Source of the DNA: Mustelus asterias
Taxonomy: Eukaryota
NCBI RefSeq assembly: GCF_964213995.1
Contig: NC_135804.1
Location: forward strand, 58,900,001 to 58,964,000
DNA: 64,000 nucleotides
Reading direction: 5' to 3'
The notes under the pieces are model-generated. The model saw only the letters and a program-made list of their open reading frames with translations, had not been told where the DNA came from and did not search any database. The position numbers and the translations under genes were made by a program. Below are positions 39,125 to 61,245 of this stretch, in pieces; positions within the stretch are counted from its first letter, which is position 1; each line of letters opens with the position of its first letter.

Positions 39125-42100
39125 GGGCTAGTATTCTCACAAGAGAAATCTAAGTGTCCAACAGATGGGAGAATGGGAGATTTTCCCAACAGTCTTTTGG
39201 ATGTATTTAGTTTCACGAACCTCTGGCACCCTGTGCTCCACCAAGTGCCTCAGGGCGATTCACGCTAGTAAGTGGGGGTGGGGCCTCATCCTGCCTGAGA
39301 AGCTGGTACCGTAGAACTGAGTGGGCCACTGCACACACATTGATCTGTCAGTGGGGAAATCGGTGCATGTGCTTGGGCCCCACCATCCCTGGCCTCTGTA
39401 TTGTCAGCCTCCTTCTCCCAAATACCGGCCCCTTCTCCTGATCGGCAGCCCTCTTCTCCCAATCACCAGCCCTCTTCTCCTGATCACCGGCCTTCTTCTC
39501 CTAATCACTGGCTTCCCAATACCACCCCCGCCAGCCTACCTGAGCCCCATCCCACCACCACCAACCCCCCCCCACCTAATCGCCAACCTATCTGACTCAT
39601 CACCCTTGGTCAGCTCTAATCCCCCGCCCCCCCATGGGCAGCCCTGAACTGATCCCCCATGGCCAGCCCCGATCTCCCACCCCCATGTGCTGCCTCAATC
39701 ACCTCCTCCCTCCCTTCCTCACTGATCCCATTGCACAGCGAGTCCTCCCCACATCAAAGAACAAAGAACAAAGAACAGTACAGCACAGGAAACAGGCCCT
39801 TCGGCCCTCCAAGCCTGTGCCGCTCCTTGGTCCAACTAGACCAATCGTTTGTATTCCTCCATTCCCAGGCTGCTCATGTGACTATCCAGGTAAGTCTTAA
39901 ACGATGTCAGCGCGCCTGCCTCCACCACCCTACTTGGCAGAGCATTCCAGGCCCCCACCACCCTCTGTGTAAAAAACATCCCTCTAATATCTGAGTTATA
40001 CTTCGCCCCTCTCATCTCGAGCCCGTGACCCCTCGTGAACGTCACTTCTGATCTGGGAAAAAGCTTCCCACCATTCACCCTATCTATCCCCTTCATAATC
40101 TTGTACACCTCTATTAGATCTCTACTCATTCTCCGTCTTTCCAGGGAGGACAACCCCAGTTTACCCAATCTCTCCTCATAGCTAAGACCCTCCATACCAG
40201 GCAACATCCTGGTAAACCTTCGCTGCACTCTCTCTAATGCCTCCACGTCCTTCTGGTAGTGCGGCGACCAGAACTGGATGCAGTACTCCAAATGTGGCCT
40301 AACCAGCGTTCTATACAGCTGCATCATCAGACTCCAGCTTTTATACTCTATACCCGTCCTATAAAGGCAAGCATACCATATGCCTTCTTCACCACCTTCT
40401 CCACCTGTGTTGCCACCTTCAAGGATTTGTGGACTTGCACATCTAGGTCCCTCTGTGTTTCTACACTCCTGATGACTCTGCCATTTATTGTATAACTCCT
40501 CCCTACATTATTTCTTCCAAAATGCATCACTTCGCATTTGTCCGGATTAAACTCCATCTGCCACCTCTCCGCCCAATTTTCCAGCCTATCGATATCCTGC
40601 TGTATCGCCCGACAATGCTCTTCGCTATCCGCAAGTCCAGCCATCTTCGTGTCATCCGCAAACTTGCTGATTACACCAGTTACACCTTCTTCCAAATCAT
40701 TTATATGTATCACAAATAGCAGAGATCCCAGTACAGAGCCCTGCGGAACACCACTGGTCACAGACCTCCAGCCGGAAAAAGACCCTTCGACCACTACCCT
40801 CTGTCTCCTATGGCCAAGCCAGTTCTCCACCCATCTAGCCACTTCTCCTTGTATCCCATGAGCCTTAACCTTCTTAACCAACCTGCCATTTAGGACTTTG
40901 TCAAATGCCTTACTGAAATCCACATAGACGACATCCACGGCCCTTCCTTCATCAACCGTTTTTGTCACTTCCTCAAAAAACTCCACCAAATTTGTAAGGC
41001 ACGACCTCCCTCTTACAAAACCATGCTGTCTGTCACTAATGAGATTGTTCCGTTCTAAATGCACATACATCCTGTCTCTAAGAATCCTCTCCAACAACTT
41101 CCCTACCACGGACGTCAAGCTCACCGGCCTATAATTTCCTGGGTTATCCCTGCTACTCTTCTTAAACAACGGGACCACATTCACTATCCTCCAATCCTCA
41201 GGGACCTCACCCGTGTCCAAAGAAGCGACAAAGATTTCCGTCAGAGGCCCAGCAATTTCATCTCTCGTCTCCCTGAGCAGTCGAGGATAGATGCCATCAG
41301 GCCCTGGGGCTTTGTAAGTTTTAATGTTCCCTAAAAAACCTAACACTTCCTCTCTTGTAATGGAGATTTTCTCTAACGGGTCAACACCTCCCTCCGAGAC
41401 ACTCCCGGTTAACACGCCCCTCTCCTTCGTGAATACCGATGCAAAGTATTCATTTAGGATCTCCCCTATTCCCTTGGGTTCTAAGCATAATTCCCCTCCT
41501 TTGTCCCTGAGAGGTCCGATTTTCTCCCTGACAACTCTTTTGTTCCTAACATATGAATAGAATGCCTTAGGATTCTCCTTAATCCTGCCTGCCAAGAACA
41601 TCTCGTGACCTCTTTTTGCCCTTCTAACTCCCTGTTTGAGTTCTTTCCTACTCTCTCTGTATTCCTCCAGAGCTCCATCTGTTTTCTGTTGCCTGGACTT
41701 AACATACGCCTCCCTTTTCATTTTAATCAGATCCTCAATTTCCCTGGTTATCCACGGCTCTCGAATCCTACCTTTCCTATCTTTCCTTTTTACAGGCACA
41801 TGCCTATCCTGCAGCCTTATCAATAGTTCCTTAAAAGACTCCCACATGCCAGACGCGGACTTACCCTCGAACATCCTCTCCCAATCAACATCCACCAATT
41901 CCTGCCTAATCCGGCTATAGTTAGCCTTCCCCCAATTTAGCACCCTGCCCGTAGGACAGCACTCATCCTTGTCCATTACTATCCTAAAGTTAACAGAGTT
42001 GTGGTCACTATTTGCCACATGTTCCCCTACCGAAACTTTGACGACCTGACCGGGCTCATTTCCCAGAACTAGGTCTAGTATAGCCCCCTCTCTAGTCGGG

Positions 42101-44688
42101 CTATCTACATACTGTTCCAAAGAACCTTCCAGTACGCATTTTACAAATTCTTCCCCGTCCGGATCCCCAGCTCTAAGCACTTTCCAGTCTGTGCCAGGGA
42201 AATTAAAGTCCCCCACTACAACAACCCTATTTTTTCTGCACCTATCCAGAATCTCCTGACATATCCTTTCCTCCACTTCCCGTGGGCTGTTGGGTGGTCT
42301 GTAGTACACCCCCAGCATAGTGACTGCACCCTTCCTGTTTCTGAGTTCCACCCACAGCGACTCAGTACATGACCCCTCTAAGTTGTCTACCCTCTGCACC
42401 ACGGTAATATGCTCCTTAACTAATATCGCTACTCCCCCACCTTTTTTAGCCCCTCCTCTGTCTCGCCTAAAACACTTATACCCCGGAATATTCAGCTGCC
42501 AGTCCTGTCCTTCTTTTAACCAAGTTTCCGTCACCGCAACCACATCCAAATTCCGCATAAGCATTAAGGCCCTAAGTTCATCAGTTTTACCCGTTACGCT
42601 CCTCGCATTGAAGCAGATGCACTCCAGACCTCCAGGCCCACTCAGGTCATCCTCCTCCAGAGTGCTCCTCTTCTTAGCTAGCCTTGCTCTGGCCCCCAGC
42701 TCAACCCCAGCCTCAGTATTTACTGACCTACTGTTTTGTTCCCACCCCCCTGCCACACTAGTTTAAATCCTGCCGAAACACTCTAGCAAAACTCCCAGCC
42801 AGGATATTTGCTCCCTTCCAGTTAAGGTGTAACCCATCCTTTCTGTACAGTTGCCATCCTGACTTGAAGATTTCCCAGTTATCTATGAATTTAAAACCCT
42901 CCCTCTTGCATCAGTCCTTTAGCCACGCGTTCAACTGTAGAATCTCCCTGTTCCGAGCCTCACTTGCACTAGACACCGGGAGCAGTCCAGAGATTGCTAC
43001 CCTGGAGGCCTTACTTTTTAGCCTAGTACCCAACTCCCTGAATTTCTCTTGTATGACCCCCCTGCTCTTCCTACCTACATCATTTTCACCAATGTGTATA
43101 ATCACATCCGTTTGACTACATTCCTTTTTAAATATGCTTCCTACCCTCTCGGAGACATCCAGTACCCCAGCACCAGGGAGGCAGACTATCATCCTGGATT
43201 CTCGTTCACTCCCACAGAACCGCCTGTCCGTGCCTCTAACCATTGTGTCCCCCACAACTATCGCTCTCCTAAACCCTTTCTTTCCCTTCCGGACCCCTGA
43301 GCCTGTCTCCGTGGAGGTGATCTGGTCCTCGTGGCTTACCCCTGGAGGGTCATCCCCCTCCACAGAATCCAAAACAATATACCTATTTTGGAGGGGGACA
43401 ACCACAGGGGATCCCTCCACAGACTGCTCACTCCCTTCCCTTCTCCCATCTTTTGCCCATCCCTTTCTTTAATGGGAGACTGCCACTGGGGTACTTTCTG
43501 GCACATCACCCTTCTGACTATTACCCCTCCTAACTGTGACCCACGTGTTTTCCTTCCGAGACCCTGGTGTCACTACCTGACTATAACTTTTATCTATTAA
43601 TGTCTCATTTTCCCTAACTAAACTGAGTTCATCGAGCCTCAGCTCCAGCTCCCTTACACGATCCTTCAGGAGTTGCAGTTCCACGCATCTGGCACAGATA
43701 TGGACTTCCGGGAGGCAAGTTGTCTCCAGGAACTCCCACATCCCACACCGAATGCAGTATACTGGCCTCCCACTCATACCAGCCATGTCCTTTTTAGTTT
43801 TTGGGAGATAAAACAAAAAAGGGGGTGTAACAGAAGAAAAACAAACAACCTTCCTCGCCTTCGCTGAAGCCCTGTGAGCCAAAGCCCTTCCAGCTCACAC
43901 TCTGCTCCCTGCTCATTCCACTGCCCGATCCAGATGCTGCCCGCTCAAAAGTGTGGCCTGCTTTTAAACCCTCCAAAAAACCTCCCCGGGCTGCTCCTGG
44001 GCCTACTTCCTGTTTTGAAAAAAACCCTCCTTTTTAAATGAGCCCTTTTTAAACCTTCCCCAGGCTGCTCCTGGGCCTACTTCCTGTTTTGAAAAAAACC
44101 TCCGATTTTTAAGCCAAATTTAACTGAAAAATAAATGAATAAAATGCAGACACAATCTCTCTTACCCTCAGCCTGCTCCTGTGGAACAGGACTATCAACA
44201 CTGATAGTCCCCCTCAGTAGGTCCCATCTCTTCATTAGGCCCCGCCCTCCTCTGGCCCCGTGCCCTTGGCACTGCCCGGTGCCTGGTGGGCAGTGCCAGG
44301 GTGTCAGGCTGGTACTTCACAAAGGGCACCCCCCCTGCCCCCAACCTTCCGGGAGGGCTTCAATGACCTCTATCCCCACCAGCGGGGTGATCATGCCTGG
44401 TGCTCATTGATGGAGGCCAGTTGTAATCTGTGCTTGTGGGAACCTCTCCAGGTGTGGGGGAGACACTAACGAGCCCAGAAAATACCGTCCTGGGCTTGGT
44501 AATCATACTGAAATTGGAACTTCAACAACTTCGCGCCAATTTCCAGCAAATGGCTGATTACATTCAAAAATATTGCCTTGGAGACTTATGATCAGCCAGG
44601 CACCAGTCAGAAGTCCACTGTAGGCCTCCCGCTGATGTCTCCCTGCCTGGGCTACTCAAGCAGTGCAGCGGTCTGGGAGAATTGCCCC
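39125..44688. mobile_element. GC-rich MITE-like element split by the full-length LINE
   Basis: GGGCTAGTATTCTC ... GGGAGAATTGCCCC ends; internal similarity to 29148-30261 in reverse orientation. Confidence 0.6.
39757..44180 (-). mobile_element. Near full-length CR1-clade LINE (HER1-like): 5'UTR, ORF1 (Zn-finger, coiled coil, SGNH esterase), ORF2 (APE + RT), (TCTTTGT)n tail
   Basis: ORF1 43786->42758 has CxxC..CxxC, VVGDT, HIGEND, DGLHLN with two in-frame stops; ORF2 42756->39836 has TETW, GDFN, SDH, PQGSVLG, FADD with one frameshift near 40350; tandem ~45-bp repeat in the 5'UTR. Confidence 0.92.
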
Positions 44689-47191: not shown

Positions 47192-48770
47192 TTAAGAACA
47201 TAAGAACATAAGAAATAGGAGCAGGAGTAGGCCATCTAGCCCCTCGAGCCTGCCCCGCCATTCAATAAGATCATGGCTGATCTGACGTGGATCAGTACCA
47301 CTTACCCGCCTGATCCCCATAACCCTTAATTCCCTTACCGATCAGGAATCCATCCATCCGCGCCTTAAACATATTCAGTGAGGTAGCCTCCACCACCTCA
47401 GTGGGCAGAGAATTCCAGAGATTCACCACCCTCTGGGAGAAGAAGTTCCTCCTCAACTCTGTCTTAAACCGACCCCCCTTTATTTTGAGGCTGTGTCCTC
47501 TAGTTTTAACTTCCTTACTAAGTGGAAAGAATCTCTCCGCCTCCACTCTATCCAGACCCCGCATTATCTTATAAGTCTCCATAAGATCCCCCCTCATCCT
47601 TCTAAACTCCAACGAGTACAAACCCAATCTCCTCAGCCTCTCCTCATAATCCAAACCCCTCATCTCCGGTATCAACCTGGTGAACCTTCTCTGCACTCCC
47701 TCCAATGCCAATATATCCTTCCTCATATAAGGGGACCAATACTGCACACAGTATTCCAGCTGCGGCCTCACCAATGCCCTGTACAGGTGCATCAAGACAT
47801 CCGTGCTTTTATATTCTATCCCCCTCGCAATATAGGCCAACATCCCATTTGCCTTCTTGATCACCTGTTGTACCTGCAGACTGGGCTTTTGCGTCTCATG
47901 CACAAGGACCCCCAGGTCCCTTTGCACGGTAGCATGTTTTAATTTGTTTCCATTGAGATAGTAATCCCATTTGTTATTATTTCCTCCAACGTGTATAACC
48001 TCGCATTTCTCAACGTTATACTCCATTTGCCATATCCTCGCCCACTCACTCAGCCTGTCCAAATCTCTCTGCAGATCTTCTCCGTCCTCCACACGATTCA
48101 CTTTTCCACTTATCTTTGTGTCGTCTGCAAACTTCGTTACCCTACACTCCGTCCCCTCCTCCAGATCATCTATATAAATGGTAAACAGTTGCGGCCCGAG
48201 TACCGATCCCTGCGGCACGCCACTAGTTACCTTCCTCCAACCGGAAAAACACCCATTTATTCCGACTCTTTGCTTCCTGTCGGATAGCCAGTCCCCAATC
48301 CACTTTAACACACTACCCCCAACTCCGTGTGCCCTAATCTTCTTCAGCAGCCTTTTATGGGGCACCTTATCAAACACCTTTTGGAAATCCAAAAACACCG
48401 CATCCACCGGTTCTCCTCCATCAACCGCCCGAGTCACATCTTCATAAAAATCCAACATGTTCGTCAAGCACGACTTTCCCCTCATGAATCCATGCTGCGT
48501 CTGATTGATCAAACCATTTCTATCCAGATGCCCTGCTATCTCCTCTTTAATAATGGATTCCAGCATTTTCCCTACTACAGACGTTAAGCTGACCGGCCTA
48601 TAGTTACCCGCCTTTTGTCTCCTTCCTTTTTTAAACAGCGGCGTAACATTAGCCGTTTTCCAATCAACCGGCACTACCCCAGAATGCAACGAGTTTTGAT
48701 AAATAATCACTAACGCATCCACTATTACCTCTGACATTTCTTTCAATACCCTGGGATGCATTCCATCCGT
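47192..48770 (-). mobile_element. Young 5'-truncated CR1/HER1-type LINE with intact RT frame
   Basis: 495-aa uninterrupted ORF with PQGSVLGP and FADD; (TTCTTATG)n tail. Confidence 0.93.
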
Positions 48771-49709
48771 TATTTTCAATGTTATTGAAAATAGTATATT
48801 GGATCAGCCTCTGGTCTATATTTCTATAGCACTTGGGGCGAATGGGAAGAAAGGTTATTGGGAAAAAACTGGATTAGGCTATTGAGTTGGATGATCAGCC
48901 ATGATCGTAATGAATGGCGGAGCAGACTCGAAGGGTCAAATGGCTTCCTCCTGCCCCTATCTTTTATGTTTCTATGTACTCTAGTGATCTTTCCTCTCTA
49001 ACAGTAGAACCTGTGTCCCTGTGCAGATTAGCTTGTCTGTCTCTCTGATGGAAATGGGCTACTTTAAAGAATAATTTTGGAAGCAGCTTCATTCAGTGCA
49101 TTTTATGGAGTTTCGGGCGCAGGGGCTTTCCTCATCCCTCTCTATTCTGTGACCGAAAAGACCGTGATTCAGATAGTATTTACAGCGAATGATTGCTGCC
49201 ACCTCAGGCAGTCACTCGGTGACAATGGACTTTGAAAGGCAACTGTTAAATTTGTTACACAATAGAAATGAATACTCATTTTTCAAAAGTTGAATCGATT
49301 GACACTTCCTTGGAGTTCAAGCGACTCCTCGTGAAATTGTATGATACAAACCATGCACGCGGCATTTTAAGAACGATCACAAGTTGACATTACAAAATGT
49401 CGATGCCAATTAGTTGCTAATATCACAATAAGATCACCCTGCACATTTGAAATCCGGAAGACGGGTAGATTTTCAACTTGTCGACAACCTCAGACTGGTT
49501 TTGGAAATCTTGCCCTGGTCACGGAAAGCAGCCGATATTGGATTGGTTCTATAATAGTCCAACGAGCAATTCTGCCAGTTATGATGTTCTAGATAGTTAG
49601 CCTGGCTGCAATCAATGTAAACAGTAATGGATGCATTTTAAGATTTATAATCGAATAGTCTGATCCTGCACTCATAAATATCTCACACCTGCAAACAGTA
49701 TTTAGATTC

Positions 49710-49847
49710 TCAACTTCTTTCTTTCTTTGTCACGTTCACTTCAGCATACACTGCGCGTTTGTTTTGTTTAAGTTTTGATGGGTCCTTGGAATCAGCAAGC
49801 TGCAAGGCGGCATAAGTCAGCTTGTTATCTCCACCTCTTTGTTTAGT
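49710..49847 (-). CDS. Gene A terminal exon (ITIM LTYAAL; AVYAEV), stop TGA
   Basis: TTTCACAG| TKQRGGDNKLTYAALQLADSKDPSKLKQNKRAVYAEVNVTKKERS*. Confidence 0.85.
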   Translation of the reverse strand, partial: TKQRGGDNKLTYAALQLADSKDPSKLKQNKRAVYAEVNVTKKERS

Positions 49848-52800
49848 CTGTGAAAGTAATATTTAATATCACCGTAAATCCATCATCCAATCATTATTGA
49901 GACAATTGACATTTTAACGAAAGACTTATGGAATTTCCTTTCATTAGTTCCAATTTCAGATTGTAATCGGATTTTGGACTGGCTTCCTTTTCCTTCTCTG
50001 CAGCCCTCCCCCAAATCTTGTTGAAATTCCATTTGAACTTTCGTGTAAAATGAGTTCGTCTGTTAATATAGCTCATTGAAGTAAGCAGATTAATTATTTG
50101 ACTAAAATAAAAAAAGTAATTCCATGCTGCTCTGTTAAGGCTGTTGGGAAAGCTGATATTACACAAGATTGTTTTAAGGCCCAATTGTCTGAACATCGAC
50201 AGCCGCAGTGCCCTGCTTATCCCACGGGGGAAGGCTCGAGGCCACATTTTTCAATCGCCTTACCGCCATTCCCCCTAAGCTCCCGATCTCTGGGGCATGA
50301 GGCAAAAATGACGAACTTGTTTGAAATCAACCGACAGAGCACAGTTGGCAGATTAAGCAAGGAACCTTCCCATTTCCTGCATCTCAGTGTCGTATCACAT
50401 AATATTGATGCCATTACAGTAAATGACCTAAGATCTACCTGGGAATATACGATACTCTCCTCCCCCTGCCTGGGGTTCGCCTTTTTCCTGGTGTCAATTT
50501 TGACTGTGGCATAGGTCAGGCTGTTGGCGGTGCCGTGTTTTGTCTGTAAAATAGATATTTTCCACATGTAGTTGGTGAATTTCTTGTTTCGTAGTTTGGG
50601 ACAAGCATTATTCCAGGCAGACCCGAAAAAGAAACGTGGATAATATTGACTCTGTTTTTGTGTAAAACCGACTACGAGCCCGCAGCCCGATTTGCAACTC
50701 TCCAAATTGCTATTTCCAACCAAGTCAGCAGGAGAAATGCCAATTAATAAGGACTTGTTGAAATCTGTCCCATAAAGATAAAACTTTCCCCAATCCGCTC
50801 AGATTCTGAACAATTAATCAATATTGACTCTGTCATGTATGGTCATATCGTAGAATCCATACAGTGCAGAAGGAGGCCATTCGGCCCATAGAGCCTGCAC
50901 CGACCACAATCCCACCCAGGCTCTATCCCCTTAAATCCACCTAATCCCCGCTAATCCCCTGACATTAAGGGGTAATTCACTTAACTTGCACATCTCTGGA
51001 GTGTAGGAGGAACACAGTAAGAAGTTTAACAACACCAGGTTAAAGTCCAACAGGTTTATTTGGTAGCAAAAGCCACACAAGCTTTCGGAGCTCTAAGCCC
51101 CTTCTTCAGGTGAGTGGGAATTCTGTTCACAAACAGAGCATATAAAGACACAGACTCAATTTGGATGAATAATGGTTGGAATGCGAATCAACTAATCAAT
51201 ATATTCGGGTAAGCGTTCTCCAAGGCAGCCTTCGTGACACACGACAGCGCAGAGTCGCTGAGCAGAAACTGATAGCCAAATTCCGCACACACGAGGACGG
51301 CCTCAACCGGGATATTGGGTTCATGTCACACTATTTGTAACCTCCACAGTTGCGTGGACCTGCAGAGTTTCACTGGCTGTCTTGTCTGGAGACAATACAC
51401 ATCTTTTTAGCCTGTCTTAATGCTCTCTCCACTCACATTGTTTTGTTTCTTAAAGACTTGATTAGTTGTAAGTATTCGCATTCCAACCATTATTCATGTA
51501 AATTGAGTCTGTGTCTTTATATGCTCTGTGTATGAACAGAATTCCCACTCACCTGAAGAAGGGGCTTAGAGCTCCGAAAGCTTGTGTGGCTTTTGCTACC
51601 AAATAAACCTGTTGGACTTTAACCTGGTGTTGTTAAACTTCTTACTGTGTTTACCCCAGTCCAACGCCGGCATCTCCACATCGTGTAGGAGGAAACCAGA
51701 GTACCCAGAGGAAACCCACGCCAACATGGGTAGAATATGAATGTACAAACTCCACATAGACAGTTACCCGAGGCCGTAATTGAACCTGGGTACCTGGCGC
51801 TGTGAGGCAGCGGTGCTAACCACTTAGTTTGAGTATTTTTCGCCTCAATCCCTCAGTCCTACCTGAGAATAGATGGTGTGCTCTTTCTTGTGTCTCGGTT
51901 TGGAGGGTCCTTTTTCTTCTCTCAGGCTCAGACTAGCGTAGGCGACAATGTTCTCACCTGGCCTTTGTCTAACCTGTAAAAATAAGACACAAAATATTGA
52001 AAGCGGCGAGTCTGTCTCTATAGCAAGCTACTGTCAATTCTAATTAATTCTGTCACTGTAAATATGCAGACAGTAAACGATAAACTAGGTTGCAAGTGCA
52101 CTCTCTCCCTTCTCGACTATTGTATCAAATATCGAACCAATCAGGTGGAGAGTATTTGTTTAATCAGTTCAAGGGATGTTGGCTTCGCTGGCTAAGCTGA
52201 CATATGTTGACAGTCGATAATTGCCCTTGGACCGCTCCAGTCGGTGTGGGGTATGTGCGTCCATGGTGTTTTTAGGGAAGTACTTCTAGGATTTTGACCC
52301 AGCGACAGTGAAGGAACTGCGATTATTTTCCAAGCCAGGGTGGTCAGTGGTTTAGAGGGGACCTTCAAGGTGGTGTTCCTATATATCTGGCAGCTTTGAG
52401 ATAAGGCGAGTTGGTGCTGCTGGAGAGAGAGATCAGTCGAAAAGAAAAGCAGTACAGCTTCAGATAGGCATTCCTGGAAGATAAGTGGCAGTGGAGTAAA
52501 CACAAAGATAAAAGCAAAATATTGCAATGCTGGAATCTGAAACAAAATCAGAAAACACTGGAAAATCTCAGTAGGTCTGACAGCATCTGTGGAGAGTGAA
52601 TAGAACGTTGGCTCTATTCTGTTTCCACAGATGCTGTCTGACCTGCTGAGATTTCCAGCATTTTCTGTTTTTGTCTCAGATTCCAGCACCCACAGTATTT
52701 TACTTCTGGCTTTTGGGCCGTATATCTGCTGCTCTTGTCCTTCTAGGTGACAGTGGTCGTGAGTTTGGAAGGTGCTGTCTAAGAAGCCTTAATGAGTTTC

Positions 52801-55800
52801 TGCAATGCATCTTGTAGATGGTATACACTGCTGCCACTGTGTGTCGGTGGTGGAGGAAGTTTTCTTTGTGGGTGGGTTGCCAATCAAACGCCCGCTTTGT
52901 CCTGGATGGTGTCGAGCTTCTTGAGTGTTGTGGAACTGCTCTCATCCAGGCAAGTGGAAAGTATTCCATCACACTCCTCACTTGTGCCTTGTAGATTGTG
53001 GACCTAGTCAGGAAGTGAGATACTCGCTGCTAGATTCTTAGCCTCTGACCTGCTCTTGTAGCTGCAATGTTTATATAAGAATATAATAAACATAAGAACA
53101 TAACAACTCGGAGCAGGAATAGGCAAATTAGCACCTCGAGCCTGCTCTGCCATTCAATACGATCATGGCTGATCTCATTTCAGCCTCATCTGCACCTTCC
53201 TACCCATTCCCCATAACCATTCATCACAGGGAACAAACCATGTGACACACTACTAGTTACAGCTTGCCAACCAGAAAAAGACCCATTGTTCCCACTCTCT
53301 GTTTTCTGTTGGTTAGTGAATCCTCTATCCAAACTAATATATTACCCCTAACCCCATTTTACCATCTGTACTAACCTTTTGTGTGGCATCTTATCAAATG
53401 CATTCTGAAAGTCCAGATATACTATACCTATAGAATCTCCAGTATCCACTTTGCTTGTTACATCTTCGAAGAGTTAGTTAAACATGATTTACCCTTCTTA
53501 AAAACATGCTGACTCTGATGGATTGCGTTTTGATTTACCAAATGTCCCTTTACTACTTCCTTAATAATGGATTCCAGCAATTTTCCAATGACAGGCGTTA
53601 AACTAAGTGGTTTATAGTTTTCTATTGTTTACATTTCTACATTTTTGAACAGAGGTGTTACATTAGTCTTTTCCCAATCTCCTACAATCCCTACATTGTA
53701 GAAGGAGGCCATTTGGTCCATCGATTTTGCACCAAGTCTCTGACAGAGCATCTTATCCAGGCCCACCCCCATTCCTATTCCCGTAACCCCATGCGTTTAC
53801 CATGCTAATCCCCCTAAACTACACATCCTGGGACACCTAGGGACAATTTAACATGGCCTTTCCACCTAATCTACTGGAACTTTTCCAGAATCCAGGGAAC
53901 TTTGGGACTTCTAACCAATGCCTCCACTATCTCTGCTGCCACTCCCTTTAAGATGTACGTCATCATGCCCTGGAGAATTGTCTGCCTTTAAGCCCAATAG
54001 TTCGGTCAGTACTTTTTCTCTAGTGAAGGCGATTATTTTAAATTCCTCCTTTTGAACAATCACCGCATTACCTGTTAATATTGGTATGGCTCTAGCCTCC
54101 TCCACTGTGAAAACCGGGACAAAATATTGATTTAGTGCCCTACCATTTCCGTGTTCCCCATTATTAACTCCTCAGTCTCGTCCTCTAAGGAACCAACGCT
54201 GTCTTTAGCTACTCTCTTCCTTTTTATGTACTTACAGAATCTTTTCCTCTCCGTTTTATATTTGCACTAGATTTGCTGCCATGCAGACATATGGCTCGTC
54301 TAGTTCAGTTTCTGGCTAATGTTCTAAATATGGAACCCAGAGCTCTTGATAAATTTACGTGCATTTAAAATTGTCACTATTTGGAACACCGCTAATAATT
54401 ATATAATTAATAATACACATTTTTAATTTCCCAATTACCTCCAACCGCTCCCCCCGCCCCCCGCCCCCCATCGGAGCAACCATTGTCTTCTTATTGCAAC
54501 CTATTGGAAGACTTGACTGCAATGCCTGAGTTTGTCTTCCTTTCACTTCCAGAAACGTCCATCCCAAGGTGGAAATCAACAGCCCGGACCCTGGCAAACG
54601 CTCACTCCCAGCGTCACTTCTCTCCCTCCGCCTCCCCTACCTCGACTTCCATGCGCCACTGTGCAATCTGGAGAGGTTTCAGGCCAATTAAGGTACCAGT
54701 AGCAGTGTTCCAGCCTGGCTTAGCCAACACACCAGAACCTGAGATCTTCCTGGTCTGTCTACATTAAGCACCTGGACATCTGGAAATTTCCTTATTTTGA
54801 AATAAATTTAAGTTTCTAAGGGGGAATCAACAGTATATAATTGTTGTCAAGGTAAATAGTTACCTGGTTCTTAAAATAAAGGAATAGAGTGTAGAAAGAA
54901 GCAATACTTTCAAACTAGCCAGGCCTCAACTGGAAATCGTGTCCCACTCCGGGACCTTCAATTTGGGAAGGATGTCAAGGTTTGGAGAGGAGATTTATTG
55001 GAATGTTACCAGGGCTGAGGGACTTCAGTGATGTGCGGGAAACTAGAGAATCTATCATTGTTCTCCTTACAGCAGGGAAAGAATTCTCAGAGGTTTATTC
55101 CGATCAAACGAGGCAAAACTGTTACTCTCGGTGGTTTGCTCGCTAACCAGGGGATTCGGATTTTGATAATTGGGAAAGATAAGGATTTTTCCGCAGCTTG
55201 CTGTTGTAATCTACAATGCCCTGACTGAGTGGCGGAAGCATATCGAATAGAAACTTTCAGAAAGGGGATTGGAGAAATGTTTTTAAAAATGTCGTTTGTA
55301 GGTAAAGCGTAAGGGAGTGGAACTCGCTGGGCACTTATTTCAAAGAGGCGGCACAGCTACTTTCTTTCCATACTATAAAATTCTATGGTTATTTTAAAAC
55401 TAATTGGTATCTTCCTGGCTGAATATAGAATTTCCTTCTCACCGCCACCCTCCATTCACCCCCACCCCCTCACGCCACCTTTTTGCAATATAAAATAAGG
55501 CATTGCCACCCTACCCGTTCTTCTCTCTGAGCTGCTTCCACGGAATTTCTATTATCGTCTAAAAGAGAAAAAAGACGTGAGCAACTGGATCAGTGCACAA
55601 GCGAAACCAGTATCGTGCTTTTGATGCTAAACAAATTTGTATACAGTAAGGAAACCTGAATGCTGAAGTTGTTCAGCAGCATTAACCGCAGTATACTGTG
55701 CATTACCTTCTCATTACCCACAGTGACCCGCAGCACACAAGGTCTACTCAAGTCTTTGTACAATGGCGCGAAGGATTTGATAGGGAATCGATAACCCTTT

Positions 55801-58800
55801 AACAATTTCAAGTTTTCAAAATCCGCTTTACGTTGCCATTTTCAAGTCTCAATCACATAACACTCGTGTGATATCAACTTCGTTCTTTAACGATTTTGCA
55901 AAGGGCTCTTTATCCCTCTACAATGAATCTATGTATTTTAACAGTGTAACCGCGCATGAGAAAATAAAAATATGCAGCGAAATGTTAAAGGTACTTACCA
56001 GCTGATGCCTTTAATTTGAGCCTCGTCAAAATAATTATCAACAGTAAAATCGCCAATGCCCCGCCTGCACATCCGAAAATGAGCGGAAGTTTGACACCAC
56101 TATCTACAAGAACAAATGATTGAAATAAGAAACTGCGCGACTCAGCGAGATTCATACACAGGTGCAAATGTGTCTCTGAGAATAATCGCTCCTACTGTCA
56201 GTGGATCTCGACCGCTTTCACTTGTGAATTGTAGCTGAACAAAGATCACAACGTTTATCAAATCGCATAAACTGCACGTTAGTAATGCAATTTATGGAGG
56301 AAACACGTTTCATTCCATAACGGCGCAGTAAGCTTCTCATTGGCCTGAAGGGTTATTTGGTAAGAGTGAGGGAATGTACATTTCTTTCACCTTGACGCGC
56401 TGCACCAGACTGATGCGCAACGTCACAAAAAGTGACAAAGGCTTTCATTCTTCAGCGCGGACAACCATCCCCAGCCTTACCAGAGAACCTTGTTTTTGGG
56501 AGATAGCAAAAGCAATTTCCATACAAATCAGGAGCAGGTGTAGGCCATTCTGACCTGCGACCCAGCTCCTCTATTTGGCTGATCCATTGTGGCCTCAACT
56601 CTACTTTCCTCTTTATCTCCTGTAACTTTTAACTCCCTTGTCAATCAAAAATCTATCTAACTCAACCTTAAAAATATTCAATGACCTTGCAACACAACTT
56701 TCTGGGGAAGAGAATGCCAGAGACCAACCACGTCTTGAAAGAGAGAAAAAACTCGCCCCGTTTTAAATGGGAGGCCTCTTACTGTTAAAGAGTGTCCCTA
56801 ACATTAGCTCCCACATTTTCTCAGCAACCATCCTGTCAGGTCTCCTCAGGATCTATGTTCCAGAAAGATCACCCCCATTCTTCTAAACTCCAGTAGATAC
56901 AGGCCCAACCTGCCCCATCTTCCCTCATAAGATAACATCTTTGTTCCAGGAATCAGTGCAATGAAACTGCTTCTGAAGAAATTACATCCTTTCTTAAGTA
57001 AGAAGACAAAACTCCAGATGTGTACTCCAGATGAAACTTGCATTTATATAGCGTCTTCAACGAAGTAAAACCTCGAAAGATATTTCACGGAGCATTATCA
57101 AACAAAACTGAATACCGACTCACATCAAATGAGAGTGGAAGAGGTGGCGTTGGGGTTCAAGAACAGTCTTAAAGAAGCCGGAGCCGGAGAGGAGGGAGGT
57201 TTCCGAGAGTCGGGTGTTGACTGCTGAGAACACATTATTTTATTTTATATTTTAAATCCCAAGCAGGAGGCCATCTGGCCCATCGTGTTTGCACCGACAA
57301 CAATGCCATCCAGGTCCCATCCCCGTAGTCGCACATATTTACCCTGCTAATCCCCTTGACACTTAGGATCAATTTAACATGGCCAATCAAACTAACCCGC
57401 ACATCTTTTTGGGAGAAAACCGGAGCACCCGGAGGAAACCAAAGCAGACACTGGGAGAATGCTCAAACTCCACACAGTCACCGAAGGCTGGAATTGAACG
57501 TGGATTCTGGCGCTTTGAGGCAGCAGTGCTAACCACTGTGCCACCGTGATGATAACAATGACCCTCCCATGTATTGAATTGAAATGCTATAATTGCATGA
57601 TATAAAATTTAATCTTTAAGAACCGATCTATTTATCTATTTCATTTGGCAAGAATTTGGCGCGGAATGAACTTTCAGTTTTAATCAGTTCGCACATCAAC
57701 CTCCCGACCCAGATCTTTTGAAGGAAATATTCTCCCTCCTCTGGCTGCAAACTACCTTGATTATTTAAATTCATTCCCGTTGATGTGACATTGAGATTGA
57801 ATAAGGTCCACATTCACTCTATAATTTCGAGTTTGAATAGCTGCCCAACTACATGTCCAATAAATAACTACAGGTTGGAGCATTTCCCCCGCTCACTGCT
57901 GTAAATGTTTCAAATCTTACCTTGAATGGCGATATAGCTGACACTGGCGGGCACCTTAAGGGAGATATGAGATGCCAGGCATGTATAAACTATTCGGTTC
58001 GGGGCAGGCTGTGTCTCTTCCAAAGAACTGGAGACCTCAAAAAGACCATCCACTGTCTTGTTTCTCACAGTTTCTATTCCGGCCAGAATTTCCACACCAT
58101 CTCTTCGCCAGGAGATTTGTAAATCCTCTGGGTAAAAGGCGGCCGTTTTACACTCGAATCTCAGAGAAGTCGCTGAAATCCCTTCAACCTGAAGGAGATT
58201 CAGGGGGGTTGGGGGAACTTTAATAGAGAAATATAAGGACAATTAATTGAGCACATTCTAATTCGTCTACCTCCATTATGTTGTTACATTCCTAACGTGA
58301 GAATCGTCCGTGCTATCGTTTTTTAAAAAATGAACTCATATCTGCATTTATTTTAAAAATCTTTTCGCCGCGCACAGCAAATTGTTCGGAAGTATTGCAA
58401 ACTGCGAGGATGAATCGCCCAGACTTGGTGACAATTGATAAAGCACCTGTCACTGTTCTGAATGGAAACACAGCTCCTGGGATGAGATATATAAATGCAC
58501 ATTTTTCTGTAAGAGTCGTGGTCGTAATAAGCATTCTTATTAAAAATCAATTGTCCGAATATTTCATGTATTGTGAAACATATTTTGTTTTAACAATCGA
58601 TATTGAGAACATATGCGTAACTGTAATGTACAAGATGCACTGCAGGAACTCAAGGTTCCTTAGGCAGCACCTTCCAAACCCATAACGACCACCATCTAGG
58701 AGGACAAGAGCCAAGGAGGTTCCCCTCCAAGTCACTCACCATCCTGACTTGGAAGTATATATACACCAGGGACTGCACCGGTTCAAAAAGGCAGCTCACC

Positions 58801-61245
58801 ACCGCCTTCTTAAGGGCAACTAAGGATGGGCAATAAATGCTGGTCTAGTCAATTTTTCATAAATTAATTTTGAAAAAGTATGCCCAATATCTGTAAAGAT
58901 TCCAGACAAGATGTTACTTTATTTATACATAAAAATCCATGCTTTTATTAAACAACATTTCTATGGAGGGTGTTTCCGATCGTGTAGCATCTACAAAAGG
59001 AACTGTTCCCAGAGGGGCGTCCGAGGGCGAAAGCACATTTTTCGTCAGGAAAGGGCTTTATTGTTAATTCTTCATGGGTGTGTAGATCACAACATCCATG
59101 CAGAGTGAAGACAAATAAAAAAATCTTTACTCAGAATGCATGTGTAATCTAATTCCACGGGTTTTGCCCTTCTACAATTTCATTTGGTCTATTGAACACG
59201 CTTTACCTGGAGAATTTCCTCTTATATCAATCCTACATTTAAAATTTACTGCTGTGAACTTGTGTCCGCTAGTTCCATAGTCACTGTTTAACTGGAAGTA
59301 AATTCCCTCATTAGGTTTACATAGATTTGCACATTATAATCAATCTCCTTAATATATTTTATTTAGAAGTCTATTTTGCCGACATTGTAGTAACAGTAAT
59401 TAGTAATTTACACGCATTATTAACTTTCAGAATTATGTTAGTCTTTATTCCCAACAAAGCCTCAGAATTCCTCCATTATTGTCCCAAGGATCTGCTTTAG
59501 GTACATACGAAATGCGACAGAATTCCCGCTGGCCAGAAAGGAGTCAGTGTTCTCTCGGTCTCCTGCCTCAAACTTTCTTCTGTACATGGCGAGTGTGCAT
59601 GGAAATTACAAATACGGGACCTCAGACGTTCATAGAAATGTTCGGTGATATCCACTTTACCGGTTGTGAGTGCATCAGAGAGAGTCCTTTTGGTGCACCC
59701 CAGAGGTTCAAACAAGGGCCATGGCACCTTAACTGTCCTGCAAGGTCTAGGGGTGGAATCCAGCATTGAGGACAAGATCAACATATCCCCTCTCACTAGT
59801 TTGTAGGATCCCGTTATGGAAAGAGTTCGGAATTTCAACCAAATCACTAACGGACACAAGTGCAAATATAAACTGCGGATATAGAAACAGGGGTCCATTC
59901 GGCCCCACTAGCTTACTCTGCCATTCCTTTAAATTATGTCTGATCCATTTGTCCGACTTAGTTCCATTCTCTTGAAACCCACGATTTATTTCCCTTGATA
60001 TGCATCGAAAATTTAGTACAGCTCGATTATTCGATTGCAATTTTGAGCAGGGGCTGACAAGTTAGTTTGTGTATGGAATACTCATGCCTTTAAGTAGGCG
60101 AGTTTTCGCCTGAATGGATACAGGAGGCACCTTATTGGGACGAATAAGATGGTCATTAATGTTGCAGAAACTAATTAATTTCGGCGGTGTTAAAATTGTT
60201 TCAATCAAAGGTCGTAGATCTGAAACCTTGACTCTGTCCACAGATGTTCAATTACTTGTTTTCTGTTTTTATTTCAGGTTCCAAGCATATGAAACATTTT
60301 GCTTTTGTACAAAAATTGTCCCCAGTGTCGCACTTTGGCGTCGTTATTTTGGTGAGAGGGAACCTGACCATCTCATCCCATTGACTAATCGCAAACTGAG
60401 ACTGCAACTGTTATCCCGCTTCACTGTTTTTGGCGCAATAATAATTGCAACTTCACACATGGCACACATTGGGTGAAATGTCACGAAGACGAGAGTGGGT
60501 GAAATTGATCTTGGGCAGTGGCACAAAGCGGGCGAGAGGGAATCGAGGGCCGTTCTACAACAAGGTGACGGGAAAAGAAAATCCCAGCAGTGTAAAACGA
60601 ATCCGTCATTACCAGGTTTTCATCTAGTGATAGAAGTTCAAATTACACAAATCACGGATAGCTGAAAAGTACCCTTTCCCCGGTAGTTTGACACTTACCG
60701 CACACAGTGAGCTGGGAACCACTTCCATCCCCAATCTTGTTCTGTTGATGTTTTACTGAACAGTGATACATTCCGGAGTCTGCAACACTCGCATTCAGAA
60801 CTTCAAATGAACTACTGCTCTTCTTTAGATACATTTTCTTTCTGCTGTCTGGTTCCAGAACAGATTCCTCGCCCCGTTTCCACCAAGAAACTTCAGGAGC
60901 ACCATCAAATATGGGAAATGTGCAGAACATGGAAACATTGTCACCCCTGGCAACCGTCAAGTGTTTAGGGAACTGTTCCACTTTGCTCCAAGTTACTTTA
61001 GCGGCTATAAAAAAAACAGTAAAGAACGGTGATAACTAGAAAGAAAAATAACTTAACAGAGGAAAACAAATTAAGAGACACCAGCAGTCAGATTGGAGAA
61101 GCACAGCATCTATTTTTACAATGCATACAGTTGTAGACGTAAAATACAATTTAAGCTGTTCTAAAACGGCGAAGTAACAACTCAGGCTACCTGGCCAAAC
61201 CAGACTCAGAAGAGCCATGTACTGAACTGTAACTCTCATCGACAT
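49710..61245 (-). CDS. Gene A: inhibitory IgSF receptor, leader-V(J)-C1-TM-cytoplasmic multi-ITIM (SIRP/NKp30-like architecture), 8 coding exons, 386 aa
   Basis: join of 61191-61245, 60699-61004, 57921-58217, 55999-56103, 55515-55558, 51863-51973, 50439-50543, 49710-49847. All introns GT-AG, phases 1,1,1,1,0,0,0 compatible, 1161 nt open from ATG to TGA. Confidence 0.88.
50439..50543 (-). CDS. Gene A cytoplasmic exon 7 (ITIM LTYATV; IVYSQ)
   Basis: TTTTACAG| TKHGTANSLTYATVKIDTRKKANPRQGEESIVYSQ |GTAGAT; 105 nt, phase 0-0. Confidence 0.85.
51073..51117 (-). ncRNA. Minimal hammerhead ribozyme motif, sense to gene A pre-mRNA
   Basis: Exact reverse complement of 51545-51589. Confidence 0.7.
51545..51589 (+). 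ncRNA. Minimal hammerhead ribozyme motif (Penelope type)
   Basis: CAC-CTGAAGA-A-GGGGCT-TAG-AGCTCC-GAAA-GCTT-GTG: core boxes, stem II, palindromic AAGCTT stem III. Confidence 0.7.
51863..51973 (-). CDS. Gene A cytoplasmic exon 6 (ITIM VAYASL; TIYSQ)
   Basis: TTTTACAG| VRQRPGENIVAYASLSLREEKGPSKPRHKKEHTIYSQ |GTAGGA; 111 nt, phase 0-0. Confidence 0.85.
52503..52710. repeat. Older palindromic repeat of a second Penelope-like family (also ~5690-5895)
   Basis: TGCTGGAATCTGAAACAAAA.. / ..TTTTGTCTCAGATTCCAGCA inverted arms. Confidence 0.6.
53085..54275 (-). mobile_element. Decayed CR1-type LINE fragments with nested SINE tail
   Basis: 3' tail at 53085; KADNSPGHDDVH fragment. Confidence 0.7.
55515..55558 (-). 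CDS. Gene A short cytoplasmic exon DDNRNSVEAAQREER
   Basis: Strong polypyrimidine TTTTAG acceptor, CGG|GTAGGG donor; 44 nt converts phase 1 to phase 0 as the next exons require. Confidence 0.75.
55999..56103 (-). CDS. Gene A transmembrane exon (no charged residue)
   Basis: DSGVKLPLIFGCAGGALAILLLIIILTRLKLKASA, basic stop-transfer residues, TGTAG| acceptor and G|GTAAGT donor. Confidence 0.9.
56525..57030 (-). mobile_element. Decayed CR1-type LINE 3' end
   Basis: LSYEGRWGRLGLYLLEFRRM. Confidence 0.7.
57262..57547 (-). mobile_element. HE1-type V-SINE
   Basis: Reverse-orientation copy. Confidence 0.8.
57921..58217 (-). CDS. Gene A C1-set Ig exon
   Basis: FECKTAAFYP..ISW..DG..DGLFEVSSSL..YTCLASH are C1-set motifs (CxxxxFYP, YxCxxxH); 297 nt, AG/GT flanked. 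Confidence 0.93.
59520..59832 (-). pseudogene. Fossil extra C1 exon in gene A V-C1 intron
   Basis: IPNS..DLVLNAGFHP*TLQDS* and FYERLRSRI match VPPT..ECKTAAFYPEDLQISW and VYTCLASHI; acceptor reads AA instead of AG. Confidence 0.5.
60699..61004 (-). CDS. Gene A V-set Ig exon with germline-joined J-like G strand
   Basis: VSMFC...VSWW...ADSGMYHC...GDGSGSQLTV; poly-T/TAG acceptor, G|GTAAGT donor; 306 nt. Confidence 0.93.
61191..61245 (-). CDS. Gene A leader (signal peptide) exon MSMRVTVQYMALLSLVWP
   Basis: ATG at 61245, hydrophobic stretch, CAG|GTAGCC donor in phase 1; same 55-nt coding length as gene B leader. Confidence 0.85.

Follow-up and report, generated by a model that had tools for sequence, protein, structure and literature searches.

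Layout and kinship of the gene

The window, which is the whole 64,000-nucleotide stretch of Mustelus asterias DNA analysed here, carries on its minus strand a gene of eight exons, with all introns GT-AG and an open frame of 386 residues. The gene begins with a leader exon of 55 nt (61191..61245, minus strand, like all the exons that follow), which ends in phase 1 and resembles the N-termini of the family proteins P0002 and P0018. There follow a VJ-type Ig V exon with a germline J-like G-x-G motif (60699..61004; Pfam V-set, E 5.2e-09), an Ig C1 exon (57921..58217; Pfam C1-set, E 1.9e-07), a transmembrane exon whose span is without a charged residue and which has homologues in P0009 and P0011 (55999..56103), and a small cytoplasmic exon of 44 nt, running from phase 1 to phase 0, whose peptide is identical in P0003 and P0018 (55515..55558). 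The best PDB matches of the C1 exon are C1 domains, with UrIg2 at the top, and the V exon drew generic Ig matches only.

The rest of the tail is encoded by three modules. Exon 6 (51863..51973; 111 nt, phase 0-0) contains the ITIM VAYASL and a distal TIYSQ, exon 7 (50439..50543; 105 nt, phase 0-0) the ITIM LTYATV and a distal IVYSQ, and exon 8, which is the last exon (49710..49847), the ITIM LTYAAL and AVYAEV. In the spliced product VAYASL, LTYATV and LTYAAL fit the ITIM consensus (I/L/V/S)xYxx(L/V), while IVYSQT and AVYAEV are no strict fit to it. Two long open frames elsewhere on the minus strand of the window (40348-42762 and 47292-48803, of 804 and 503 codons) look, by their motifs, like putative pieces of retroelement endonuclease and reverse transcriptase.

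With its VJ domain in a single exon and one C1 exon behind it, the gene has the non-rearranging VJ-C1 (PRARP-like) layout. There are 56 V-exon matches on the window's contig, in a few clusters, and the gene has an activating-type twin, L033 (G000:C4:59874332-59878469, plus strand), with a V that is 95% identical and an Arg in the membrane span; the downstream DNA examined behind the twin's V (at G000:C4:59874335) held no clear tail module. The two genes show the marks of paired receptors: the partner's ectodomain is almost identical, its membrane span carries a charge, and no clear ITIM module belongs to it. Given this near-identical V copy with its membrane Arg, the gene here would be the inhibitory-type member of a paired receptor family, and it is likely to be an inhibitory shark VJ-C1 receptor. 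The paralogues that we call B, C and D have activating-type twins as well, and paralogue B has its V, C1 and membrane exons inside the window (6380-6081, 2839-2543 and about 590-486, minus strand), with its tail just outside.

Donors inside the distal tyrosine motifs

Both internal modules end within their distal tyrosine motif. Exon 6 ends in TAT TCT CAG followed by GTAGGA (donor CAG/GTAGGA; U1 duplex -10.7 kcal/mol), and reading on gives TIYSQVGLRD*, with the five codons VGLRD and a TGA at 51847-51845 (51845..51862, minus strand). Exon 7 ends in TAT TCC CAG followed by GTAGAT (donor CAG/GTAGAT; U1 duplex -8.0), at the start of the last intron (591 nt), and its read-through gives IVYSQV plus 72 residues, a frame of 73 codons that closes with a TAA at 50219-50217 (50217..50438, minus strand). 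The matching site of exon 8, GAA/GTGAAC, is a poor donor (U1 duplex -2.5). When spliced, the two motifs read TIYSQ/T and IVYSQ/T, with the Thr supplied by the next exon; the ITSM TxYxx(V/I) is matched by the exon 6 read-through TIYSQV and not by the spliced TIYSQT. By the definitions in the available part of PMC2832619, TIYSQV is an ITSM and IVYSQV an ITIM. The sequence-only reading had called the spliced distal motifs non-canonical and had given the exon 6 read-through as TIYSQV-GLRD with its stop at 51845-51847, and coordinates, phases and sequences all check; its IVYSQV for exon 7 is likewise confirmed as a motif, but with 73 codons the tail behind it is not short.

Part of this picture comes automatically. 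A GTN donor always reads as Val when it stands in phase 0, and CAG is the usual exon end. The statement that the donor GTA is itself a Val codon is therefore true but uninformative, since any phase-0 GT donor gives the same result. A stop within 5 codons follows 10% of decoy donor-like sites (n=2124, from 864 kb of genome DNA). What is not due to chance is the register of the donors with the +3 codon of the last exon. Exons 6, 7 and 8 are homologous (exon 6 versus exon 8, 38% identity, E 1e-05), and a DNA profile built from 12 last exons of the family matches both exon 6 (E 0.081) and exon 7 (E 5.9e-05), and both matches break off at the GT, where the profile has its columns for the +3 codon. 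The donor recurs at the +3-codon position in 14 internal-type exons of the genome. Exons 6 and 7 are copies of one module (z 4.0 over the exon and 2.5 over the first intron bases), so that their two donors are not independent cases. The observation is thus real, correctly read and partly automatic.

The receptor family is already in the databases: cartilaginous-fish V-C1 models (SIRP-like, NCR3LG1-like and tapasin-related) have the same domains, tail modules and spliced T-[IV]-Y-x-Q/T junction, as in XP_067906043.1 of Heterodontus, GCB74934.1 of Scyliorhinus and XP_007902901.2 of Callorhinchus. We counted junctions in 50 proteins of the family (P0002-P0052; the repeat protein P0040, which does not belong to the family, and the V query were left out), with the junction places taken from protein alignment and not from the source DNA. 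These proteins come from Callorhinchus, Heptranchias, Heterodontus, Chiloscyllium, Scyliorhinus, Mustelus, Mobula and Hemitrygon. The 51 internal junction motifs have T in 43 cases, I in 5, N in 2, A in 1 and V in 0, where the zero is biased by the use of spliced proteins as queries; in a hand-picked, one-per-gene subset of 25 proteins, T stands at 27 of 33 junctions. None of the 50 models has the read-through form, in a survey of gene models that are predictions and tend to omit retained-intron forms, and whose clusters show few members. Thr could become the canonical Ile by a single base change, yet Ile is found in a few lineages and Thr is kept in most. In their spliced form, a few relatives with I in this place (5 of 51) match the ITSM.

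The motif T-[IV]-Y-x-[QE]-T-K spans Callorhinchus to Mobula, that is chimaera, sharks and rays, and TIYTET, which is like the spliced motif, occurs at the C-terminus of P0038; in last exons of the shark's own genome, the stretch that matches TIYTET lies inside one exon (VIYTEP, VIYTDT). With the spliced form kept across cartilaginous fish and a similar one existing elsewhere without splicing, it is doubtful that splicing destroys the motif, as had been claimed, and the Thr motif looks like a feature that has been kept. The N-SH2 domain of SHP-2 prefers E/Q at pY+2 and I/V/L at pY+3 (Sweeney 2005, as quoted in the available part of PMC12151841). Thr at pY+3 falls outside the ITIM and ITSM consensus and outside this preference, and no known partner accounts for the conservation of T-[IV]-Y at the junction. 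From chimaera to rays, conservation of T-[IV]-Y-x-[QE]-T points to a binding partner or to a tolerated weak site.

The models P0019 and P0041 carry the tails of paralogues C and D, spliced as TIYSQ/TKQ with exon 6 joined to exon 8. Models that are short of modules also occur (P0006 by two, P0045 by one), as expected because phase 0-0 exons can be skipped.

Several variants of the tail were seen along the way. Many last exons (L026, L041, L054, L056; P0036, P0038) have an extra tyrosine motif, Y-x-[ED]-[TAP]-[KR], about 14 residues past the distal one, which departs from the canonical form in the same manner as the motif at the spliced junction. In the Heterodontus models P0037 and P0051 the junction reads AQ-VG-TKQ, which suggests a donor shifted 6 nt downstream, and the module tyrosine has become His. 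In paralogues B, C and D (L001/L007/L012-L013; G000:C4:58891220, 58834595 and 58779853) exon 7 is dead, by a deletion that took the acceptor and the 5' part and by a frameshift, while its donor remains. In L056 (G000:C4:59239434, minus strand) the internal module reads on to TDYTQV and an immediate stop, the intron is 208 nt long, and the downstream last exon is without the ITIM tyrosine.

Origin of the tail modules

As the best explanation, in which we have moderate confidence, we propose that the three homologous tail exons go back to a last exon that was duplicated, that the internal donors came from a latent [CG]AG/GT within its Y-x-[QE]-V codons, and that full splicing is the normal state with read-through as a by-product. 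The pattern at the donors would then probably be a trace of how the tail was built. A last exon with Y-x-[QE]-V codons would hide a latent [CG]AG/GT donor, which could arise readily (as [CG]AG GTN) given the preference of SHP-2 for E/Q at +2 and V/I/L at +3. Upon duplication the copied last exon would become internal, and its donor would fall where the distal tyrosine motif has its +3 codon. The donor would have been fixed once, before the split of chimaeras and sharks, and exon 7 would be a later copy common to the horn shark and the catsharks. The normal product would be the fully spliced receptor of 386 residues. Its three ITIMs would be the main sites for recruiting SHP-type phosphatases, next to two T/I-x-Y-x-Q-T motifs of non-canonical form and AVYAEV at the end, with isoform variety arising from the skipping of symmetric exons.

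The age of the event is suggested by a module tree of 62 units and 35 columns, which is unrooted and poorly resolved and has two mis-cut rows (the first row of P0023, and P0007). In this unrooted tree the internal and last modules cluster as types, with 4 label changes versus 20.5 when the labels are shuffled; exon 7 groups with the middle modules of Heterodontus (horn shark) and Scyliorhinus (catshark) (98/84); and the chimaera middle modules group with last exons (95/86) and have kept V at pY+3. As the internal and last modules are old, clustered types, the first event likely took place before the chimaera-shark split. The chimaera middle modules seem to use a donor two codons later, which would be a second route. 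In a degenerate pattern search of the genome, 267 matches were obtained, mostly by chance, and one of them was a new family member.

The paralogue L050 (G000:C4:59208480-59214400) bears most directly on this history. Its gene is apparently intact, with V, C1, membrane exon and small exon, and in its tail region (L050:4178-5370; G000:C4:59213178-59214370) the unit at the first module position ends in TTYAQ/GTGCGT, a good donor (G000:C4:59213280; U1 -9.7). Beyond this donor the frame goes on for 20 codons, like the 20-residue C-termini of last exons, and its peptide resembles them with p ~0.01 against decoys, a likeness that was first spotted by eye in one of 9 lineages and stands at p ~0.09 after correction. 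The last-exon DNA profile also runs on for 24 nt beyond the donor (36.8 bits). The unit is tandemly duplicated (702 bp, 97.6%), it scores equally as internal or terminal type (31.4 versus 32.2 bits), and its second donor is followed, at a distance of 197 nt, by the old last exon in frameshifted form, which DNA alignment detected (z 5.1) and tblastn did not. A protein search with the unit and its sequel returned 10 candidates, none of which scored, which is weak evidence. L050 is apparently the intermediate predicted by the idea of a copied last exon, namely a module of last-exon type that has a latent donor and is followed by another acceptor.

The sequence-only reading had already proposed that the internal exons are copies of a terminal exon whose YxxV codon became the donor. 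This is supported, short of proof of the direction, by the homology, the register and the apparent intermediate in L050, and the event appears old and shared instead of having happened twice in this gene.

L050 is also the family's best candidate for a working read-through, and one could extend this to a toggle across the family. In this case the Y-x-[QE]-V codons would spell a 5' splice site by which a module serves either as a last exon, with a canonical ITSM or ITIM, or as an internal exon, with the Thr motif; some members would use both under regulation, and one paralogue or more (L050 among them) would have gone over to read-through and lost its old last exon. We regard such a toggle as a tentative possibility that is on balance improbable.

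The reverse direction is unlikely as well. Here the ancestor would have been a phase 0-0 cassette ending in Y-x-Q, whose last copy lost its donor, gained YxxV for free and later fixed V/I/L. This is consistent with last exons that keep Q/E at pY+2, like exon ends at donors, in 8 of 12 own-genome cases, with the automatic Val of GTN, and with L050 itself, which may be a present-day internal exon turned last. The L050 sequel, however, is homologous to existing last-exon C-termini, which is not expected when an ordinary intron is read through; the SHP-2 preference gives Q/E at pY+2 a reason at the protein level; and the place of the chimaera middle modules among last exons, with V at pY+3, indicates that last-to-internal conversion occurs.

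Read-through in this gene and comparison with known systems

Returning from the copied last exon to the read-through of exons 6 and 7, it had been suggested that intron retention or intronic polyadenylation could switch the tail of this receptor to a short form. Exon 6 or 7 would then be a hybrid internal/last exon, and skipping its donor would yield a short receptor with ITIM and ITSM (311 residues) or the IVYSQV form, changing the choice of SH2 partner. Several observations are in favour: the read-through motifs are canonical (in the terms of PMC2832619, as far as available); the two tyrosines would be 23 apart, near the 25 of PD-1 (Y223 and Y248, from the same part of PMC12151841 as above); the module intron of paralogues is often last and short (108, 140, 140 and 208 nt; 4 of 9 measured); L056 reads through to TDYTQV and a stop; L050 keeps its last-exon-like sequel of 20 codons while its old last exon is lost; and human genes commonly contain hybrid internal-last exons (bioRxiv 10.1101/2021.05.27.446076, in the part available). 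The third read-through residue (pY+5) is hydrophobic in 5-6 of 9 lineages versus 26% of decoys, with p from 0.054 to 0.011 in lineages that are related to each other.

The details of this gene do not support the switch. Its donors are not weak but ordinary, with the U1 duplexes of -10.7 and -8.0 comparing with -7.7 to -11.2 in the other 5 introns, and the Val is forced by the GT and is found at none of the 51 junctions. The TGA of the exon 6 read-through is kept in one of three close upstream paralogues (D) and lost in B and C, where the frame runs for 42 codons and an AATAAA (at about +115) precedes the read-through stop. Among 14 internal-type exons in 9 lineages the read-through frames are 1-73 codons long, not shorter than decoys (p 0.10), and a conserved read-through frame with its stop, by which a hybrid internal-last exon would be recognised, was not found. 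Nor do the read-throughs of exons 6 and 7 resemble last-exon C-termini (p 0.07-0.13 and 0.53-0.61), in a test that gave p<0.05 for 8 of 12 true last exons as positive control and had one mis-cut training row (P0023). For exon 6 there is no near alternative donor in frame that would restore Val before the stop, and for exon 7 there are four in-frame GT, none of them consensus-like.

No conserved poly(A) signal follows the read-through stop when this gene is compared with paralogues B-D, whose AATAAA (about +115) aligns to sequence in this gene that is not AATAAA. The only AATAAA of intron 6 (about 51060), where 0.55 are expected by chance, sits inside an inserted high-copy repeat (50847..51824, on neither strand in particular; depth 1e5-1e6; loose ends at 50847 and 51824) that is absent in B and D. 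Intron 7 has no AATAAA and one ATTAAA, 20 nt before the acceptor. The repeat in intron 6 is nested, with an internal inverted repeat, and was inserted about 40 nt past the donor.

A stop that lies 50-55 nt or more upstream of the last junction marks a transcript for decay. If intron 6 were kept and intron 7 removed, the stop would be about 1400 nt before the last junction, so that retention of intron 6 would likely lead to decay. Retention of intron 7 would likely escape it because this is the last intron, a point in favour of the switch, but it gives a long tail and not a short PD-1-like one.

Three sequencing runs were compared over window positions 49000-56200, with repeats swamping the tables of joints, loose ends and pieces. 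In run X1, a candidate RNA run (its being RNA is a guess) from another organism and with a small share, the bins that cover exons 7 and 8 and the membrane exon have a depth of about 2, in amounts that fit the exon lengths, and the bins of mid-intron 7 and of exon 6 have none; as contigs show presence and not absence, we give these depths no weight. Run X5 (another organism, sequencing kind unrecorded) has at least 6 substitutions in the distal part of the exon 7 read-through, and among those listed 3 are silent and 3 are not, with 4 of 6 at third positions.

Taken together, read-through in this gene is likely a minor by-product at most, with a sequel that resembles ordinary intron, and we judge a regulated switch to be quite unlikely here and somewhat likelier somewhere in the family. 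That ordinary phase-0 introns merely happened to fall three codons past a tyrosine, with V and often Q coming free at any phase-0 donor and with introns that split ITAM YxxL in this phase being a known trait (PMC2832619, part available), is very improbable and largely refuted by the donor, which in the alignment to the homologous last exon falls exactly on the +3 codon and which has the same place in the 14 internal-type exons.

If the latent-donor origin that we prefer is true, it would offer inhibitory receptors an easy way to gain signalling modules, as the codons preferred by SH2 domains already contain a donor and a copied last exon turns internal without new sequence. If a regulated switch were true, checkpoint-like signalling would be tuned in a manner not described before, and the evidence for this gene is not in its favour.

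How do these tails compare with known receptors? We found no paper on the tails or their donors, and the supplementary figures of papers on shark NCR3/VJ-C1 could already show them; the available parts of PMC12227049 and PMC10751288 contain no description of this cluster. With SIRP paired receptors, NKp30/NCR3, PRARP and UrIg the gene shares a non-rearranging VJ-type domain, a C1 domain, and paired inhibitory and activating forms. SIRP ectodomains are V-C1-C1, and NKp30/NCR3 has a single VJ domain with a charged membrane residue. We rejected the SIRP family as an identity on finding one C1 exon between V and membrane exon and no SIRP chain among the listed PDB matches, and NCR3/NKp30 on finding V-C1 with an uncharged span.

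The likeness to PD-1 lies in the tail, which in the exon 6 read-through would have a single ITIM and a single ITSM, spaced much as in PD-1 (PMC12151841, here and below from the part available). PD-1 has one V domain and a stalk, whereas the shark gene has a C1 exon and falls outside the PD-1/CD28 layout, and the PD-1 consensus (T/V)EYATIx(F/Y) is unmatched by the shark read-through beyond TxYxxV (PMC12151841). On these two grounds, the C1 exon and the unmatched consensus, identity with the PD-1 gene was rejected.

Changes of the tail by RNA processing have precedents. The secretory tailpiece of IgM is an example of intronic polyadenylation. Tail-changing splice forms are reported for Ly108 and CEACAM1. 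The shark exons would resemble hybrid internal-last exons (Fiszbein et al., bioRxiv 10.1101/2021.05.27.446076, in part) in having, within an open frame, a donor at which either splicing or read-through may occur, and they differ from them in that no conserved poly(A) signal follows the donor. A parallel for the split motif is the ITAM YxxL of the CEACAM family, which phase-0 introns likewise divide between exons (PMC2832619, as available). There splicing builds the canonical motif, whereas in the shark tail the canonical residue is intronic and splicing supplies Thr, or Ile in a few lineages.
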